DNA from: Candidatus Kapaibacterium sp.
Lineage (GTDB): Bacteria; Bacteroidota; Ignavibacteria; OLB7
Assembly (NCBI GenBank): GCA_050248595.1
Contig: JBFWSB010000001.1
Location: 1 to 47,336 of the forward strand
DNA length: 47,336 nt
Direction: 5' to 3'
Part shown: positions 8,651 through 26,966 of the stretch, piece after piece
Layout of the letters: each line of letters begins with the position of its first letter
How positions within the stretch are numbered: the first letter of the stretch is position 1
The notes under the pieces: model-generated
The model's database searches: none
What the model was told of the DNA's origin: nothing
Seen by the model: the letters and a program-made list of their open reading frames with translations, nothing else
Position numbers and translations under genes: made by a program

Positions 8651-9003
8651 AGAATAGATCTCCTCTGTTGCCTTATAAATAACTTTTAGATGAGTGTTCC
8701 CTCGAACACCCACCTATCCCCCTTGTCGATTAGGAAGAAAAGTAAAGGTACAGGTAAGTGATTGATTCAACAAACAGCGGGAAGACTGTCACCCCCACTA
8801 CTTCTTCTCCCGAACTGCTGCATGGCAAGCCTTTTCTCCCCAATTCACCAGTTCTTTGTCATCTTCGAGGATACAAGAGAAGGTTGGACCTGTAATAGCT
8901 GGAAAAAGCTGATTGCACTAAATTCAATAGAGGAAGTTGTATATCTACTCATCCTCCATTCTCGCTCAGAGTAAAGTGCCACGCATTCCCCCTTTTGAAT
9001 TGT

Positions 9004-9723
9004 TCATTTTAAATTTTGAATTTGATTCTGACTTCCTCTCCGCTCTGCGGCAACCGGACTTGTCCGCACCCACCGAAAGTGCCAGAGGATTAACGACTTG
9101 GTAATACCACTTGTTCCCGCACTGATAATTACTGGCCACCCGGTTGCAACCCCCATCACAAGTCCGAACGAGACAACACTTATATCTTTAATCACTGTTG
9201 TCTGGTGCGTTCGGATTGCCCCAGCCCCGCCATCTCCACTCCGGCGCATAACGTAGACTTGGTGTAGGTCTGACTGGGCAATCAGAATGGCGAGGAACGG
9301 AATCACAAATTCTGAGAACTTTTTGGTGTAGGGGAGAACCGAATCGCCGATACCCCAGGCAACAAAGCCGAGTAGCAGAAAGAGGGTGGAGAGAGCGAAG
9401 ATATATTTGGAGACGGCATCCCGCCGATCAATAAAAATTTCAACTACAATCGTGTAGAGAAGCAGCACCGCCCCAAGATTCAACCAGACGAGGAAGTGGT
9501 TGAAGGGACGAATTGAGTAGCCGTAAATCACAATCACGTAGAAGGCAACGAACCTGACAACGTAGTGATTGAGCGAGAGGATTGCGGTTACCTTCCCTCT
9601 ACTTTCTCCCCCCTCCCTGAAAAACTCTTTCCGCCTGTAGATCGTGCGAAGCTGTATCCAGATGCCCACCAGATTGAGGAAGATGAACGTATTACTGAGT
9701 ATCCCCAGTATGGTGTAGAGCAT
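9004..9723 (-). CDS. Polytopic membrane protein (about 7 TM), possibly PQ-loop-like
   Basis: Start placed at MLYTILGILSNTFIFLNLVG; the upstream extension of the track ORF runs into a repeat fragment. There are two internally similar halves, each with a basic loop after a TM (IQLRTIYRRKE... and QVYVMRRSGDGG...). Confidence 0.55.
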   Translation of the reverse strand: MLYTILGILSNTFIFLNLVGIWIQLRTIYRRKEFFREGGESRGKVTAILSLNHYVVRFVAFYVIVIYGYSIRPFNHFLVWLNLGAVLLLYTIVVEIFIDRRDAVSKYIFALSTLFLLLGFVAWGIGDSVLPYTKKFSEFVIPFLAILIAQSDLHQVYVMRRSGDGGAGAIRTHQTTVIKDISVVSFGLVMGVATGWPVIISAGTSGITKSLILWHFRWVRTSPVAAERRGSQNQIQNLK

Positions 9724-9813
9724 AGCGCGTTGTTGCTGCGTAGAGGGAACTGTTCGGCGCAATCTACGATAATGACCAGAATGACTCTCGTGGACTTTTG
9801 TTCGCGGAAGAAT

Positions 9814-9868
9814 CACGCAAAGACGCGAAGGCGCAAAGAACGCGGAGGTTGTAGTTGGAGATTTTCAG
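9814..9868 (+). repeat. Fragment (head module) of the composite intergenic repeat family
   Basis: CACGCAAAGACGCGAAGGCGCAAAGAA followed by GGAGGTTG, matching the GCGCAAAG-box head seen at 22266, 26925-26965 (rc) and 39040-39142 (rc). Confidence 0.5.
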
Positions 9869-17303: not shown

Positions 17304-17535
17304 TGTCTCTCCTAATGTTTTTGAATGAGATTATTGATTTCTGAACTAAAGATATGAGTATTGAGTGAAGAGAGGGATAAAGGGAGAGGTAAAATTCGTT
17401 GCAACGCACAATACTGGTATGAGCAGCAACTGGTATGCTGTGCTATCCTCGCAAAGGATAACCACCAAGAACACCAAGGGTAGAATATTTCTCCATTGTA
17501 CAGACTTCACGTGCTGTCTCTATAGCATCTCAGCC

Positions 17536-20419: not shown

Positions 20420-21610
20420 CTATATCGAAGATAGTTGACGGGATCGTTCGGTCGCCTCGATAATCTCCAGAGCGAACCGGTCGGCAAAGATACTTCCTTT
20501 CGCCGTAAGTCGCAGGGAATCTTCATCGAGCAGAGCGAAGCCTTCGTTCAACAACCATTCTACTCTGTCGGCTGCAACGCTCGTCAACTCTTCGCCAACA
20601 GCCTCTTTAAAGTCGTGAAGGTTAATCCCTCGGTAGCGGAGTCCTAACATCACGATCTCTTCCATCCCCTGCTCGGGAGTCAACTCCTCCCGCATAATCA
20701 CCGGACTTCCTCCCGACTCAATTGATTCGAGGTAGGCGTTCAGACTGGAGACGTTTGCCCAGCGTTTCCCCAACACTCCACGACGAGCGAAGCTGTGAGC
20801 CGATGGGCCGTAACCGGTATAGCTCTTCCGTTCCCAGTAGCCGATGTTGTGTCGGCAGGCGTAGCCCGGCTTCGCGTAGTTGCTCGTCTCGTACTGCTCC
20901 AAACCGTGTTGAGCCAGGAACTCTACAGTCTCTTCGTACATGTCGGCTTCAAGATCGTTCGGAGCGGGGTTTACCTTCCCCTTCAATCGCATTGCGTTCA
21001 GAGGTGTGCCCTCTTCAAAGATGAGAGAGTAGGCACTGATGTGATCGGTTCCAAGGTCGACCGCTCGCTCAAGATTGTAGTGCCAACGTTCGGGAGTCTG
21101 TCCCGGCAGTGCAAAGATCATATCGAGCGAGACGTTGTCGAAAACATCGCGGACGATCCGGATATTCTCTTCGGCCTCGGCTGCGGTGTGGATGCGGCTT
21201 AGGAACTGCAACTCATCGTCGTGGAATGACTGCACACCGAAGCTTAGTCGGTTGATTCCCCCCTCGCGGTATCCTTCCAACCAATCACGGTTCAGCGCAC
21301 CCGGATTGCACTCCATCGTGATCTCGGCATCCTCTACAACTGTGTGTGCAGTCCGCAGCGAACTGAGAATTGCACTCATCTCATCGGGAGAGAGCATCGA
21401 GGGTGTCCCGCCGCCGAAAAAGATCGTCCGAATCTCCTCCCGCTCCCCTCTCGTCGACGGGATTTCTCCCGACTGCGCAATCTCCCGGTGCAAGGCATCG
21501 AGGAAACGATCCTTGTTTGCAAAAGACTCAATTGAGTAGAAGCTACAGTAGATGCACTTCTTCTCGCAGAACGGTATGTGTATGTAGAGACCAGACATGG
21601 TGGAATTCAA
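20420..21610 (-). CDS. hemW: Radical SAM family heme chaperone HemW (coproporphyrinogen-III-oxidase-like)
   Basis: LYIHIPFCEKKCIYCSFYS (CxxxCxxC), FFGGGTPS and the HemN_C-like C-terminus. Confidence 0.9.
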   Translation of the reverse strand: MNSTMSGLYIHIPFCEKKCIYCSFYSIESFANKDRFLDALHREIAQSGEIPSTRGEREEIRTIFFGGGTPSMLSPDEMSAILSSLRTAHTVVEDAEITMECNPGALNRDWLEGYREGGINRLSFGVQSFHDDELQFLSRIHTAAEAEENIRIVRDVFDNVSLDMIFALPGQTPERWHYNLERAVDLGTDHISAYSLIFEEGTPLNAMRLKGKVNPAPNDLEADMYEETVEFLAQHGLEQYETSNYAKPGYACRHNIGYWERKSYTGYGPSAHSFARRGVLGKRWANVSSLNAYLESIESGGSPVIMREELTPEQGMEEIVMLGLRYRGINLHDFKEAVGEELTSVAADRVEWLLNEGFALLDEDSLRLTAKGSIFADRFALEIIEATERSRQLSSI

Positions 21611-21643
21611 AATGAAAAGTTCAAAGTGGGGGTAAAGCTATTC

Positions 21644-22225
21644 TCAGGGGATGTAGACTTCGTTAATTCGGGTGACAATACCATCATGCAACTCGAAGCG
21701 GAAGATAGCGGAACGATAGTCGGTTTTCTTTGTGATCAGAAGTTCAACGTCTCCCTTCGCTTCCTCCAAGCTTTGATCTGCTTGGCTATACCAGAACTCA
21801 ACGGTAGCCTGCGCAGCTACAGTAAGTTTCTTCACTTCGCTCCTATCGTTAACGACAAAATAGTCGTTGTATACGAAGTACGTTGTATCCCCATTCTCCC
21901 CAATATCGACTTCTGCTTCTCCCCGTTCTTGAGCGGCAGCGATGGCATCATCATCCTGCGTGTAGAGGAGCAAATCAACATCGACATTATAGGAAGGCTG
22001 CGGGCTACGAGGATCACCCCGATTTATCAACCAAACACGATCAATCCTACCATAAACTGTTCCCGTTTCAGGCACGTCAGCAGGCTCTACAAATCGGTAG
22101 GGTAGAGTGAATGAATCTTTCGGCAGGCTCTCTGTTCTCTGATAGAGATCAGCACCCTGCTCTCTCGAACATGATAGTGCGCAAACAGCACCTATCAACA
22201 CCATTATCTTCCTGAATGTACTCAT
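21644..22225 (-). CDS. Hypothetical lipoprotein
   Basis: MSTFRKIMVLIGAVCALSCS lipobox-like signal. No recognised domain. Confidence 0.6.
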   Translation of the reverse strand: MSTFRKIMVLIGAVCALSCSREQGADLYQRTESLPKDSFTLPYRFVEPADVPETGTVYGRIDRVWLINRGDPRSPQPSYNVDVDLLLYTQDDDAIAAAQERGEAEVDIGENGDTTYFVYNDYFVVNDRSEVKKLTVAAQATVEFWYSQADQSLEEAKGDVELLITKKTDYRSAIFRFELHDGIVTRINEVYIP

Positions 22226-22261: not shown

Positions 22262-22426
22262 GAGAGCGCACAAAGTCGCAAAGAAGAGATCCAACTTTCG
22301 ACTCCTTGACTTGCCAACCTCTACCAATCCGGGCGAAGACTGAAGACCGGTCGGTACTCCTACACTCTCACACTCACGAACTCCCACACTCATACACTCA
22401 ACTCTACGAACTCTACTCCACTCTTT
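22262..22426 (+). repeat. Composite intergenic repeat, copy A (head GCGCA-AAG boxes, core TTGACTTGCCAACCTCTACCAATCCGGGCGAAG, C/A-rich tail CACACTCACGAAC...)
   Basis: It aligns by eye over nearly its whole length with the reverse complement of 38941-39063, and in modules with 24451-24871 and rc 26768-26966. It abuts or overlaps the last codons of lepB (stop at 22413). Confidence 0.8.
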
Positions 22427-23267
22427 TTCCTATCCTTCCCCACCGAATTCCATCTTCTCCACTCGACCAGAAAATCATTATTGCCTCTCCGATTAAATTT
22501 TCATATGGGATAAAACCGAAGTGGCGACTGTCGCGGCTGTTGGCGGAGTTATCGCCGAGCGCAAAGAAATAATCTTGCTTGAAACGGTAGCGGGTTGCAG
22601 GGCCGCCGTTGATAAAGACTATCCGGTTTTTGTAGGTGACGTTGACACCTTCGGCGTAGAGAACATCTTTCCAAGCTTCGGCAGTTATCGAATCGAGTGG
22701 TAGTTCATATCCTTTGTAGGGGACAATCACCATCTTCCTTTTTCGGAGCAGAGGCCAGGCCTTTTTCACATCCATCGGCTCGCGGCGAACTGTCGATAGA
22801 GAGAGAGGCTCAGGTTCTCTCCCATTGACGACAATCACTCCTTCAACCAGAGCAACTGTATCTCCGGGAAGAGCAACGGCACGTTTGAAAAGAGTTGAAT
22901 GATCCTCACTCACGTAAAGTTCGGGAGAGCGAAAGAGGACAATATCTCCACGCTCAAGACTCCCAAGCCCCCCCAACTCAAGGTGAGGGATAGGCCAGTG
23001 AGTGAAGGGAAAGAACTCTGGTGTGCGGATATAGTAGGGCAACTGATTAATGAGGACTGCATCTCCGGAAAGAATCGTCGGTTCCATTGACCTTGTTGGA
23101 ATGGCGTAAGGTGCAAAGACGAAGGTTCGCAGAATCAACAACCCCAACAGGGAATATCCAGTACCCCAGAGGAGTTTGCGAAACGCATCGGATGGAGACT
23201 TTTCCTCTCCTGCAATTACCGCCCCACCTGCCTCCACCGATTCTTCTGTATGATCGGTCTGGTTCAT
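22413..23267 (-). CDS. lepB: Signal peptidase I (paralog 1)
   Basis: One TM, SMEPTI (catalytic Ser box), LFKRAVALPGD (Lys box) and GDNSANSRDSRHFGFIP (box E). Confidence 0.9.
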   Translation of the reverse strand: MNQTDHTEESVEAGGAVIAGEEKSPSDAFRKLLWGTGYSLLGLLILRTFVFAPYAIPTRSMEPTILSGDAVLINQLPYYIRTPEFFPFTHWPIPHLELGGLGSLERGDIVLFRSPELYVSEDHSTLFKRAVALPGDTVALVEGVIVVNGREPEPLSLSTVRREPMDVKKAWPLLRKRKMVIVPYKGYELPLDSITAEAWKDVLYAEGVNVTYKNRIVFINGGPATRYRFKQDYFFALGDNSANSRDSRHFGFIPYENLIGEAIMIFWSSGEDGIRWGRIGKRVE

Positions 23268-24450: not shown

Positions 24451-24871
24451 CTCACGCAAAGGAGAGTTCTAACTCCTTGAGTTCTGAGTTGATAGACTCG
24501 GCAACCCCTACATTTCCCGACACAGCCTAAAGAGTTGCGGCTACCATGCCTTCCCCACTCATACACTCCCACACTCACGAACTCTTCCACTTCATGTGTT
24601 CTGAATTGATAGCCTTGACTGTCCCCCTACCAATCCTGACGCAACCTAAAGTGTTGCGGCTACCACGCCTTCCCCACTCATCCTCTCCCGCACTCACGAA
24701 CTCTTCCACTTCATGTGTGCTGAATTGATAGCCTTGACTGTCCCCTCTACCAATCCTGACGCAACCTAAAGTGTTGCGGCTACCATCATATCATCCTTAC
24801 TCATACACTCCCACACTCACGAACCCATACACTCCACTCTATAAACTCTCAACTCTACACACTCTACGAAC
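24451..24871 (+). repeat. Composite intergenic repeat, copy C: three tandem units of about 119 bp (24481-24598, 24599-24717, 24718-24871) preceded by a head fragment
   Basis: Units read directly: TTCTGAATTGATAGCCTTGACTGTCCCCCTACCAATCCTGACGCAACCTAAAGTGTTGCGGCTACCACGCCTTCCCCACTCAT...CACTCACGAACTCTTCCACTTCATGTG. Units 2 and 3 are nearly identical in the first 65 bp or so. Each unit holds a GACGCAAC-CTAAAGT-GTTGCGGC hairpin. Confidence 0.9.
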
Positions 24872-24877
24872 TTATAA

Positions 24878-26695
24878 TTAGTCATCATCCATCGACAGAA
24901 CTGCGAGGAAGGCCTCTTGCGGAATCTCGACGGAGCCGACCTGTTTCATTCGCTTCTTTCCCTCCTTCTGCTTTTCGAGGAGTTTTCTCTTACGCGAGAT
25001 GTCACCACCGTAACACTTTGCGGTTACATCTTTCCGCATCGCTCGGATACTGTCGCGCGCAATCACCTTTGCACCAATTGCAGCTTGCACCACGACCTCG
25101 TACATCTGGCGTGGAATCAACTCTCTCAACTTACCACACAATTTCCGTCCGTAATGGTAGGATTTTGAGCGGTGGACGATCAAGGAGAGAGCATCGACCT
25201 TATCGCCGTTCAAGAGAATGTCAACCTTCACAAGATCTTCCTCACGCATGTCAATCACCTCGTAGTCGAAGGAGGCATATCCTCGTGAGATCGACTTTAG
25301 GCGGTCGTAGAAATCGAAAATTACCTCACCGAGTGGAAGCTCGAAGCTCATGTCGACACGATCCTGCGAAAGATACTTCGTATCCTTGAAGATTGCTCGA
25401 CGCTCCATGCAGAGCTTGGTGACCGGGCCGATATAGTCGGAAGGACAGATAATTTGTGCCCGGATGAATGGCTCGGCAATGCCTTCAATATCACCAACTG
25501 CTGGCATCTTCGCAGGGTTGTCCACTTTCAGTTCTTCGCCACTCTTTTTTGTGACTCGGTACTGTACGTTCGGAACAGTCGTGACAATTGTCTGCTCGAA
25601 CTCCCGCTCCAATCGTTCCTGCACAATCTCCATGTGGAGAAGTCCAAGAAACCCGCACCGGAAGCCGAAACCGAGAGCTGTTGAGGTTTCTGGCTCGAAG
25701 ACGAGAGAAGAATCGTTCAGAGCCAGTTTATCGAGCGCGTCGCGGAGTGCCTCGTAGTCGTCAGAATCGGCAGGGTAGATGCCGGCAAAGACCATTGGCT
25801 TCACTTCTTGATAACCCGGGATTGGGTTCTCGGCTCCCCCTCGTGCCAGAGTTACGGTGTCGCCAACCTTTGTATCCTTTACATCCTTGATCGAGGCAGT
25901 GAAGTAGCCAACCGAACCACAGGAGATTTCGGCTCCCTGCACTCGCTTCATGCGCAACAGTCCGCACTCATCTACTTCAAACTTCTTCCCACTGTGCATC
26001 ATGATAATCTCATCCCCCTTCCGCATCACCCCGTCAACAACGCGAACGTAGGCGATAGCTCCACGGTATGGATCGAAGACAGAGTCGAAAATCAAGGCGC
26101 GAAGTGGGGCATCTGGATCACCTTTCGGTGGAGGGACGCGATCGACGAGAGCTTCGAGAATCTCGTGGATGCCAATTCCCGACTTCGCGGAGCTAAGAAT
26201 AATTTCTTCTTCCTTGCACCCAATCAAGTCCATCACCTGCGCCTTCACTGTTTCCAGCGTGGTGGTGGCTGCCGGAAGGTCGATCTTGTTGATGACCGGA
26301 ATAATCTCCAAATCGGCATCAATTGCCAAGTAGAGGTTCGAAATCGTCTGCGCTTCCACTCCCTGCGTGGCATCTACAATCAGAAGTGCCCCCTCACACG
26401 CCTTCAGCGAACGAGAGACCTCATAACTGAAGTCGACGTGCCCCGGCGTGTCAATCAGGTTGAGTGTGTAGACTGACTTATCACCGGTCTCTTTGGGCCG
26501 GATATAGTTCATCTGAATCGCGTGCAGCTTGATCGTGATCCCACGTTCTTGCTCCAGCGGATTATTGTCCAGAATCTGGGCGTTTGTCATCTCCCGCTTC
26601 GTGATCGCCCCGGTATACTCCAACAACCGGTCGGCAAGAGTTGACTTGCCGTGATCTATGTGAGCGATGATGCAGAAATTGCGGATATTGTTCAT
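24878..26695 (-). CDS. lepA: Translation elongation factor 4 (LepA)
   Basis: [22 protein letters not shown] (G1), [19 protein letters not shown] (G3), NKIDL (G4) and the LepA-specific C-terminal domain ...[22 protein letters not shown]. Confidence 0.97.
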
Positions 26696-26767
26696 GCGTT
26701 ATCGATAGCGTTACAAAACAAAGAGAGCCAACATACCTCTAAGAAGCCGAGTGCGCAAGAACAAGAA

Positions 26768-26966
26768 TGTGAGAGTTCATAGAGTTATGAGTTGAGAGTG
26801 CGGAGTGAAGTGTGTGAGTTCGTGAGTGGGGGAGTGGATTGGTGGGGAAGGCATGGTAGGCGTAACTCTTTAGGTTGCGTCGTGATTGGCAGATGGGTCA
26901 AGCCGATCAATTCAGAACTCAGAAAGTCACCCTTCTTTGCGTCTTTGCGCCTTTGCGTGCCCTCTA
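26768..26966 (-). repeat. Composite intergenic repeat, copy D (inverted relative to copies A and C)
   Basis: The reverse complement reads GCACGCAAAGGCGCAAAGACGCAAAGAAGG...GAGTTCTGAATTGATCGGCTTGACCCATCTGCCAATCACGACGCAACCTAAAGAGTTACGCCTACCATGCCTTCCCCACC...CCCACTCACGAACTCACACAC. This is colinear with the units of copy C. It sits in the lepA/mpg divergent intergenic region. Confidence 0.85.

Follow-up and report, generated by a model that had tools for sequence, protein, structure and literature searches.

The window analysed here, a stretch of 47,336 nt, is contig C1 of an Ignavibacteria MAG (G000; 4.49 Mb, 511 contigs, 50% G+C, 95% complete). Around its signal-peptidase, lepA and methylpurine-DNA glycosylase genes, and next to the gene at 37905-38942, lie four long copies (A to D) of a composite repeat, in which we distinguish a head, a linker, a core and two tails, tail1 and tail2 (Table 1). 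The + strand of the element is defined as its C/A-rich strand. The original prediction had placed the four copies correctly in position and strand, and a repeat search of the window links them: copy A (22306-22396) matches copy D (38938-39028) at 86% over 91 nt, and the units of copy B (24515-24713) match copy C (26806-26892) at 84-85% over 80-87 nt. Two fragments listed with them are also real, with shifted borders. The head fragment noted at 9814-9868 was found at 9805-9840 by repeat search and TRF, and the tail fragment noted at 37783-37830 was found at 37788-37823, at a threshold that gives 65 matches in the genome and 2 in the reversed control. The possible degenerate tail at 17355-17385 was recovered by no module scan.

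Table 1 Repeat modules and neighbouring features in the window.
Feature	Position	Strand	Remarks
Copy A	22262-22426	+	head-linker-core-tail composite
Copy A, head units	22268-22285	+	
Copy A, linker	22286-22319	+	
Copy A, degenerate core	22320-22362	+	TCTACCAATCC; weak hairpin CCGG..CTGAAGA..CCGG, then GTAC
Copy A, tail1	22356-22399	+	
Copy A, tail2	22394-22426	+	
Copy B	24451-24871	+	single head unit, then 119-nt unit three times in tandem
Copy B, cores	24508-24545, 24627-24664, 24746-24784	+	
Copy B, tail1	24557-24592, 24676-24711, 24799-24834	+	
Copy B, tail2	24838-24871	+	
Copy C	26768-26966	-	
Copy C, head	26935-26958	-	
Copy C, core	26855-26893	-	
Copy C, tail1	26808-26843	-	
Copy C, tail2	26768-26807	-	
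Copy D	38941-39145	-	
Copy D, head plus linker, twice	39043-39066 and 39107-39131	-	
Copy D, degenerate core	38987-39014	-	same variant as in copy A
Copy D, tail1	38941-38978	-	adjoins the TAA stop of the gene at 37905-38942 (+)
Head-only array	9805-9840	+	CACGCAAAG-ACGCGAAG-GCGCAAAG; repeat search; TRF 9816-9848
Tail1-only fragment	37788-37823	+	ACTC-periodic, G-poor; at most 7/36 substitutions from the tail1 consensus
Signal-peptidase gene	22413-23267	-	its TAG stop is the CTA at 22413-22415 in copy A
193-aa ORF	21644-22225	-	between copy A and the next gene; no Pfam match
Octamer arrays (TTTGAATT)n	21600-21640, 2549-2593, 8979-9023		

Copy B ends 6 nt from the lepA stop (24878), and TRF counts 2.6 copies of its 119-nt unit at 24515-24824. 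Its three units in G000 correspond to one at the orthologous site of the congener G002, where the composite downstream of lepA is a single unit. The divergent region that separates lepA from the methylpurine-DNA glycosylase gene holds copy C, whose ortholog is present in G002. The lepA gene is thus flanked by inverted composites in both species (window 24451-26966; G002:C1:1681-3947), so this arrangement is older than their split.

Two further features of the neighbourhood were observed. The 193-aa ORF next to copy A is missing at the syntenic site of G002; there the next gene's (AATTCAAA)n leader directly abuts the composite. The octamer tandem array (TTTGAATT)n occurs as 77 arrays in G000, with 0 in the reversed control. 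These arrays point to gene starts by 2 to 1, often no more than about 10 nt from the ATG, and one of them borders a REP-containing indel between G000 and G002. The array may represent a motif of leaders or promoter regions in this lineage.

Modules, order and placement across the genome

The dispersed family proposed for the window extends through the whole genome, with 180 sites found by blastn using the four long copies as queries and 100 cores found by nhmmer. The head consists of tandem octamers, CACGCAAAG/GCGCAAAG, that is (GCGCAAAG)n, and forms 116 arrays in G000 compared with 7 in the control. It is joined to the core by a linker such as ACTCTTCGACTTTGTAGACTCGACAGCC. The core reads TCTAC-YRATCC-YGR-CGCAxy-CTGAAGA-x'y'TGCG-S-CTACC, a pattern that has 73 matches in G000 with one mismatch allowed and 0 in the control. 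Tail1, ACTCATACACTCCCACACTCACGAACTCATACACTC, has an exact ACTC period of 8, and tail2 is (AACTCTAYRAACTCTCA)n, with 111 nhmmer matches and a pattern count of 89 compared with 0 in the control. Because the counts of head, core and tail2 are far above those of the controls, chance is excluded genome-wide. The remark that the strand opposite the G-poor tail carries runs of G holds for some tail1 copies and fails as a family-wide feature.

A second GTAG-tagged hairpin, hp2, was also found in G000. It reads GGAGCAAAAGTTTTTGCTCC-CTAC, or GTAG-GGAGCAAAA(G)TTTTTGCTCC in the opposite direction, and uses the orientation and the tails of the core. We counted 54 nhmmer matches, among which some palindromic sites are counted on both strands; none lies in the window, and an example is C40:6357-6400.

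Clustering of all modules gave 254 loci, including 66 with a head only, 38 with tail2 only, 17 with tail1 only and 16 with a core only, the rest being combinations, which bears out the proposal that the modules recombine. Wherever they co-occur, the order is head, core, tail1, tail2 on one strand, and the 15 mixed clusters result mostly from the palindromic hp2. Adjacent cores no more than 300 nt apart were co-oriented in 22 cases and inverted in none.

The family had been described as entirely intergenic and free of a transposase, and 97 of 100 cores indeed overlap called genes by less than 30%. Their gene contexts are co-directional in 54 cases, convergent in 20 and divergent in 11; convergent regions hold 24% of the cores against a background of 14%, and divergent regions 13% against 17%. 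In the co-directional contexts, the G/T-rich strand of the core is sense in 42 and antisense in 12 (p = 5e-5), and the same preference is found over all clusters (90 sense, 46 antisense; p = 2e-4). For tails that face the 3' end of a gene, the median distance between tail end and stop codon is 7-10 nt. The stop next to a tail is TAG in 42/80 cases, compared with 32% genome-wide (p = 1.6e-4), and many genes end as ...AGTTCG-TAG-AGTT..., with the stop inside the tail unit, as in the signal-peptidase gene at copy A.

Replication and transcription are confounded as causes of this orientation bias in G000, where the GC skew of contigs tracks the gene strand (rho = 0.65) and discordant cases are too few to part the two. 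Among the co-directional cases of G002, 24/33 agree with transcription and 22/32 with skew (40 windows of 20 kb), and a hand tally of the 11 cases that can tell transcription from skew came out at 6 to 5. We also considered the head as a mobile promoter of the Bacteroidota type, given its repeated TTTG, and rejected this candidate: heads lie in convergent regions in 25/89 classifiable cases (background 14%) and in divergent regions in 5/89 (background 17%).

The core hairpin and RAYT genes in other genomes

An alignment of 85 core copies was used for a covariation test with 500 shuffles and slid controls. The core forms a 6-bp stem, CGCAxy / x'y'TGCG, which covaries: double-sided pair changes filled 78 cells, compared with 31.6 +/- 10.9 in the shuffles, of which 0/500 reached 78, and with 6-12 in the slid controls. 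The two variable inner pairs are distributed as GC 37 / AU 36 / GU 6 and CG 38 / GC 34, and at least six pairing stem variants exist (AAC/GTT, AGG/CCT, AGC/GCT, AAG/CTT, ACC/GGT and TTGG/CCAA). The loop is CTGAAGA in 63/85 copies. Directly 3' of the stem stands CTAC, the reverse complement of GTAG, in columns at least 90% conserved, and a second tag, TCTAC, precedes the stem by 6-7 nt. Read on its G-rich strand, the core is GGTAG-SCGCAx'y'-TCTTCAG-xyTGCG, with GTAG directly 5' of the palindrome, and a GTAG tag beside a palindrome is the signature of GTAG-type REPs (PMC3733652). As to which strand folds, the counts of G-T and A-C mismatches (24 and 32) favour neither.

A structured RNA spanning a whole copy was rejected, with fold z-scores of -0.95 and -0.40, no better than shuffles, and no Rfam hit; the core hairpin is the sole structured part of the copies. 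Rfam covariance models at gathering score gave no match over the whole window on both strands, and a literature search with the exact sequence of the AGG/CCT-stem variant and its tag junction found no paper in the library searched. It was therefore fair of the original prediction not to recognise the sequence, yet the kind of element is known (PMC3733652).

We then searched 185,579 genomes, one per species, for the hairpin sequence CGCANNCTRAAGANNTGCGNCTAC. At least 119 stretches carry it, in many phyla, against a chance expectation of about 2. The MAG labels among the listed matches include Omnitrophota, Limnoglobus and other Planctomycetota, Chloroflexi, Uhrbacteria/Patescibacteria, Rhodothermales and Bacteroidota, as well as Ignavibacteria, Chlorobiota, Binatia, Verrucomicrobiia, Latescibacterota, Acidobacteriota, Alpha- and Gammaproteobacteria, and others. 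The hairpin, loop included, is almost unchanged across MAGs whose labels span over a dozen names at phylum or class level. In some of these genomes it has its own surroundings: three loci of Omnitrophota and Zipacnadia MAGs (L030, L057, L112) contain it as tight tandem arrays with lineage-specific spacers, and in Limnoglobus a second conserved hairpin, GCGTCGCGTCTCGAAGACTCGCCACGAC, always precedes the shared one.

Eight of the genomes matching CGCANNCTRAAGANNTGCGNCTAC were searched for Y1 enzymes. Behind four weak Pfam Y1 matches stood ORFs of 154-166 aa, each bracketed by inverted hairpin copies with GTAG outward, in an Omnitrophota MAG, a Rhodothermales MAG, an Uhrbacteria MAG and G009, a member of the window's GTDB family. 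The two ORFs scanned with the NCBIfam model NF047646 (REP_Tyr_transpos), those of Uhrbacteria and Omnitrophota, scored 81.4 and 82.7 bits against a cut-off of 80. All four retain the HUH motif and the YxxNPV tyrosine region, and a profile built from them matched E. coli TnpA_REP (PDB 4ER8) with E = 2.7e-11.

A profile of this RAYT clade was run over 41 relatives, and strong matches were obtained in G009, G040, G015 and G004 (same family), in G003 (same genus) and in G023. The RAYT genes of G009, G040, G015 and G004 are bracketed by inverted REP copies, and that of G003 by the loop variant GTAGCCGCAGCGCTTTACGCCTGCGG. Because inverted hairpin copies flank RAYT ORFs in relatives and in other phyla, the core appears to be the true REP of a specific RAYT clade. 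This agrees with the REP/BIME-like reading given at the outset, to which it adds the covarying, GTAG-tagged hairpin.

The search for a cognate transposase thus succeeded beside the hairpin in relatives and detected none in the window's own genome: neither the RAYT-clade profile nor tblastn with four RAYTs matched anything in G000. No cognate RAYT was found in the congener G002 (98% complete, 10 contigs), where a weak partial match reached 28.5 bits over 35 profile positions, and the profile had no match in G012. As partners, the Y1_Tnp loci of G000 itself (C8, IS200-like; C83; C462) were rejected, with the core absent within 1.5 kb and other hairpins flanking them. At one of them (C83:11255-11854, locus L012), an IS200/RAYT-like Y1 ORF with an open frame of 199 aa is surrounded by GC-rich hairpin repeats, GCCCCGGAGGGGC and CCGTGGGG..CCCCACGG, arranged as a direct array. 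These repeats are unrelated to the core and represent a different repeat system.

We counted REPs per genome with one mismatch allowed, for which the controls gave about 0. There were 73 in G000, 54 in G002, 325 in G009, 133 in G012, 32 in G040, 16 in G015, 13 in G004, 11 in G016, 10 in G003, 7 in G014 and 5 in G001, and no more than 1 in the sampled genomes outside family f1. REPs are near-uniform in the RAYT-bearing G040, G015 and G004, whereas the RAYT-less G000 and G002 contain many stem variants, and the diverse REPs of these two genomes fit old orphan populations.

The modules differ in range. Tail2 is genus-specific (89, 63, 22 and 3 copies; 0 in 37 other genomes), the head occurs in several Ignavibacteria genera (in the genus and in G018, with 120 matches, G016, G040 and G043), and the core is pan-bacterial. 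G018, of the same family and another genus, has the head array as about 60 perfect inverted doublets, CACGCAAAGCCGCGAAGGCGCAAAGAA-N7-TTCTTTGCGCCTTCGCGGCTTTGCGTG, of about 60 nt and often at contig ends (e.g. L009:1470-1540). With no more than 1 core match and no cognate RAYT found in this genome, its head doublets look like an independent palindromic repeat family.

Origin and turnover of the mosaic

The propagating unit exceeds the hairpin. Stem AAC/GTT goes with the 5' flank TACYRATCC and stem AGG/CCT with ACAARMCTTG (p = 2e-5), and AGG/CCT is more often combined with tail1 (stem-tail association, p = 0.02). Several modules have been duplicated together locally, as a 119-nt unit three times in copy B and a 67-nt unit three times on contig C112. 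In copies A and D the stem is broken, yet the two are 86% alike, so some copying needs no intact hairpin.

Turnover was followed by comparison with G002, where synteny with the window is accompanied by 86-91% DNA identity and composites occupy the same places at lepA and lepB. At G002 REP sites with syntenic flanks, the REP is kept in G000 at 22/36. Over 17 shared sites the median identity is 87% in the hairpin, 54% in the repeat zone and 90% in the outer flanks. Most of the differences between the two genomes are indels of modules, one of them bounded by direct (AATTCAAA)n arrays, and no target-site duplication is visible at the presence/absence sites.

We consider it probable that the family is a REP-type mosaic with a GTAG-tagged hairpin core, which was seeded by a RAYT and then orphaned. 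The core would be the single-stranded-DNA substrate of the HUH/Y1 enzyme RAYT (TnpA_REP), and the copies would have been seeded when folded single-stranded DNA was cleaved and rejoined beside the GTAG guide. Since the assembly of G000 contains no REP-flanked RAYT, we infer mobilisation by a RAYT in this genome from the relatives. The enzyme would then have been lost, or its gene left unassembled as a repeat-flanked gene in an assembly of 511 contigs that is 95% complete, and the copies of G000 would now be orphans that change through local tandem duplication, slippage of the 8-nt arrays and recombination. At the level of the genus, the unit comprises the linker, the hairpin and the G-poor, ACTC-periodic, genus-specific tail, often preceded by the (GCGCAAAG)n head, a separate repeat common to other Ignavibacteria genera. 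The mosaic sits in what would be dispensable DNA just 3' of genes, with the G/T-rich strand usually in the mRNA sense. By analogy with other REPs, it is possible that it serves as a 3'-end RNA stabiliser or terminator. What speaks against this explanation, besides the lack of a REP-flanked RAYT in the assembly of G000, is the head-to-tail arrangement of all 22 adjacent core pairs, which is a rare class among GTAG REPs and the opposite of the BIME/REPIN doublets. The likeness of copies A and D in spite of their broken stems also counts against it.

An unlikely alternative is that an ancient cross-phylum REP hairpin outlived its transposase and now belongs to a post-gene cassette that is kept for a host function and spreads by recombination. 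The cassette would, with equally little probability, consist of stop codon, GAGT-periodic tail, hairpin and CTTTGCGC array and act, for example, at mRNA 3' ends or as insulation against antisense or read-through transcription. As a co-opted 3'-UTR cassette, to which we likewise give a low probability, its hairpin would block 3' exonucleases or aid termination, its unstructured tail and head would be protein- or Rho-loading platforms, and, in one version, its G-poor strand would be a rut site halting antisense transcription into the upstream gene. The orientation bias of cores (42/12) and clusters (90/46) relative to transcription is in keeping with such a function, as are the tails within about 10 nt of stop codons, the enrichment in convergent and depletion in divergent regions, orthologous hairpins as conserved (87%) as the coding flanks (90%), and the roles of this kind described for other REPs (PMC3733652, PMC8266576). 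Against it, orthologous copies are about 54% alike beyond the hairpin and differ by large indels, the REP is missing in one species at 14/36 syntenic sites, whole copies fold like shuffles (z = -0.95 and -0.40), a U-tract after the hairpin is absent, and the G-poor strand is antisense in most copies.

It is less likely still that microsatellite-like 8-mers and a hairpin are independent short repeats, co-located in permissive intergenic spots with no propagating unit. The single-module clusters, which make up most of the total (66 head, 38 tail2, 17 tail1 and 16 core), and the differing phyletic ranges, with the head abundant in G018 beside at most 1 core match, would suit independent repeats. 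The fixed order and orientation on co-occurrence, with 15/254 mixed clusters that mostly involve the palindromic hp2, do not suit them, nor do the ties of stem subtype to 5' flank and tail type and the duplication of whole multi-module units (copy B, contig C112 and the pair A/D). The MITE-like alternative named in the original prediction found no support, and a MITE or IS terminal sequence moved by a DDE transposase is hardly credible. The elements are small, dispersed, intergenic and noncoding, as MITEs would be; however, head and tail ends are unrelated, terminal inverted repeats are absent, adjacent cores are all direct, presence/absence sites in G000 and G002 lack a visible target-site duplication, and the only gene consistently bracketed by the hairpin is the Y1/HUH RAYT.

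Significance and comparison with known systems

REP/RAYT is a well-studied proteobacterial class that is now placed in Ignavibacteria. Near-unchanged across phyla and, in several of the MAGs, next to its own RAYT clade, the hairpin may help to decide between horizontal movement of REPtrons and constancy imposed by the enzyme. The genus provides a natural comparison between RAYT-bearing genomes with uniform REPs and RAYT-less genomes with diversified, locally amplified REPs, which bears on how REPs spread and persist. In practice, the mosaics account for numerous contig breaks and spurious short ORFs in MAGs of this kind, and we advise masking them before promoter or sRNA prediction.

GTAG-tagged REPs and REPtrons have been described by Di Nocera et al. 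2013 (PMC3733652) and Nunvar et al. 2010 (PMC2817692). In the GTAG REP survey, stems measure 6-13 bp, most loops 2-4 nt, and head-to-tail arrangement is rare; GTAG REPs often supply the TAG stop, and REPtron loss is described, with REPs persisting without a RAYT (PMC3733652). The same survey reports no GTAG REPs from Chlorobi/Bacteroidetes, where only the CGTC type was found, and makes no mention of Ignavibacteria (PMC3733652). Our family resembles GTAG REPs in its covarying 6-bp stem with an adjacent GTAG tag, its approximately 100 intergenic copies, their enrichment in convergent and co-directional contexts near 3' ends and the TAG stop they often supply. It resembles REPtrons in the RAYT with inverted flanking copies, seen here in related genomes, and in the REPs that persist in RAYT-less genomes. 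It differs from GTAG REPs in the 7-nt conserved loop CTGAAGA, the second tag 6-7 nt past the other side of the stem, the exclusively head-to-tail arrangement and the position of the hairpin inside a fixed-order mosaic with two 8-nt tandem arrays. For a known kind of element this layout is unusual, with head-to-tail cores in a fixed-order mosaic between two lineage-specific octamer arrays.

In the BIMEs of E. coli, REPs alternate in inverted orientation, with conserved motifs between them. Our mosaic is similar to these BIMEs (see also PMC2817692) in combining a REP hairpin with short motifs, in its variable copy number and in local tandem amplification after genes. It is different in that 22/22 adjacent pairs are direct and the octamer arrays are unrelated to BIME motifs. 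The REPIN-RAYT systems of Pseudomonas have as their unit a doublet of REPs in inverted orientation (Bertels and Rainey 2011, PMC3116915). With these systems our family shares a non-autonomous hairpin, service by a single-copy RAYT and vertical persistence, but the inverted doublet was not seen here and a cognate RAYT was undetected in G000 and G002. Measured by inverted REP pairs at regular spacing, the mark of BIMEs and REPINs, the 22 adjacent pairs within 300 nt included 0 inverted ones.

Cleavage and rejoining of folded single-stranded DNA by RAYTs has been shown for the E. coli, Stenotrophomonas and Marinomonas enzymes (PMC3479197, PMC8266576). Compared with the E. coli TnpA_REP-REP system (PDB 4ER8, PMC3479197; PMC8266576), the family has a homologous RAYT clade in relatives and GTAG 5' of the stem, the side on which the proposed guide lies; the sequences are distant, however, and the hairpin here combines a short, perfectly paired stem with a long loop that is conserved, whereas the E. 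coli palindrome is bulged.
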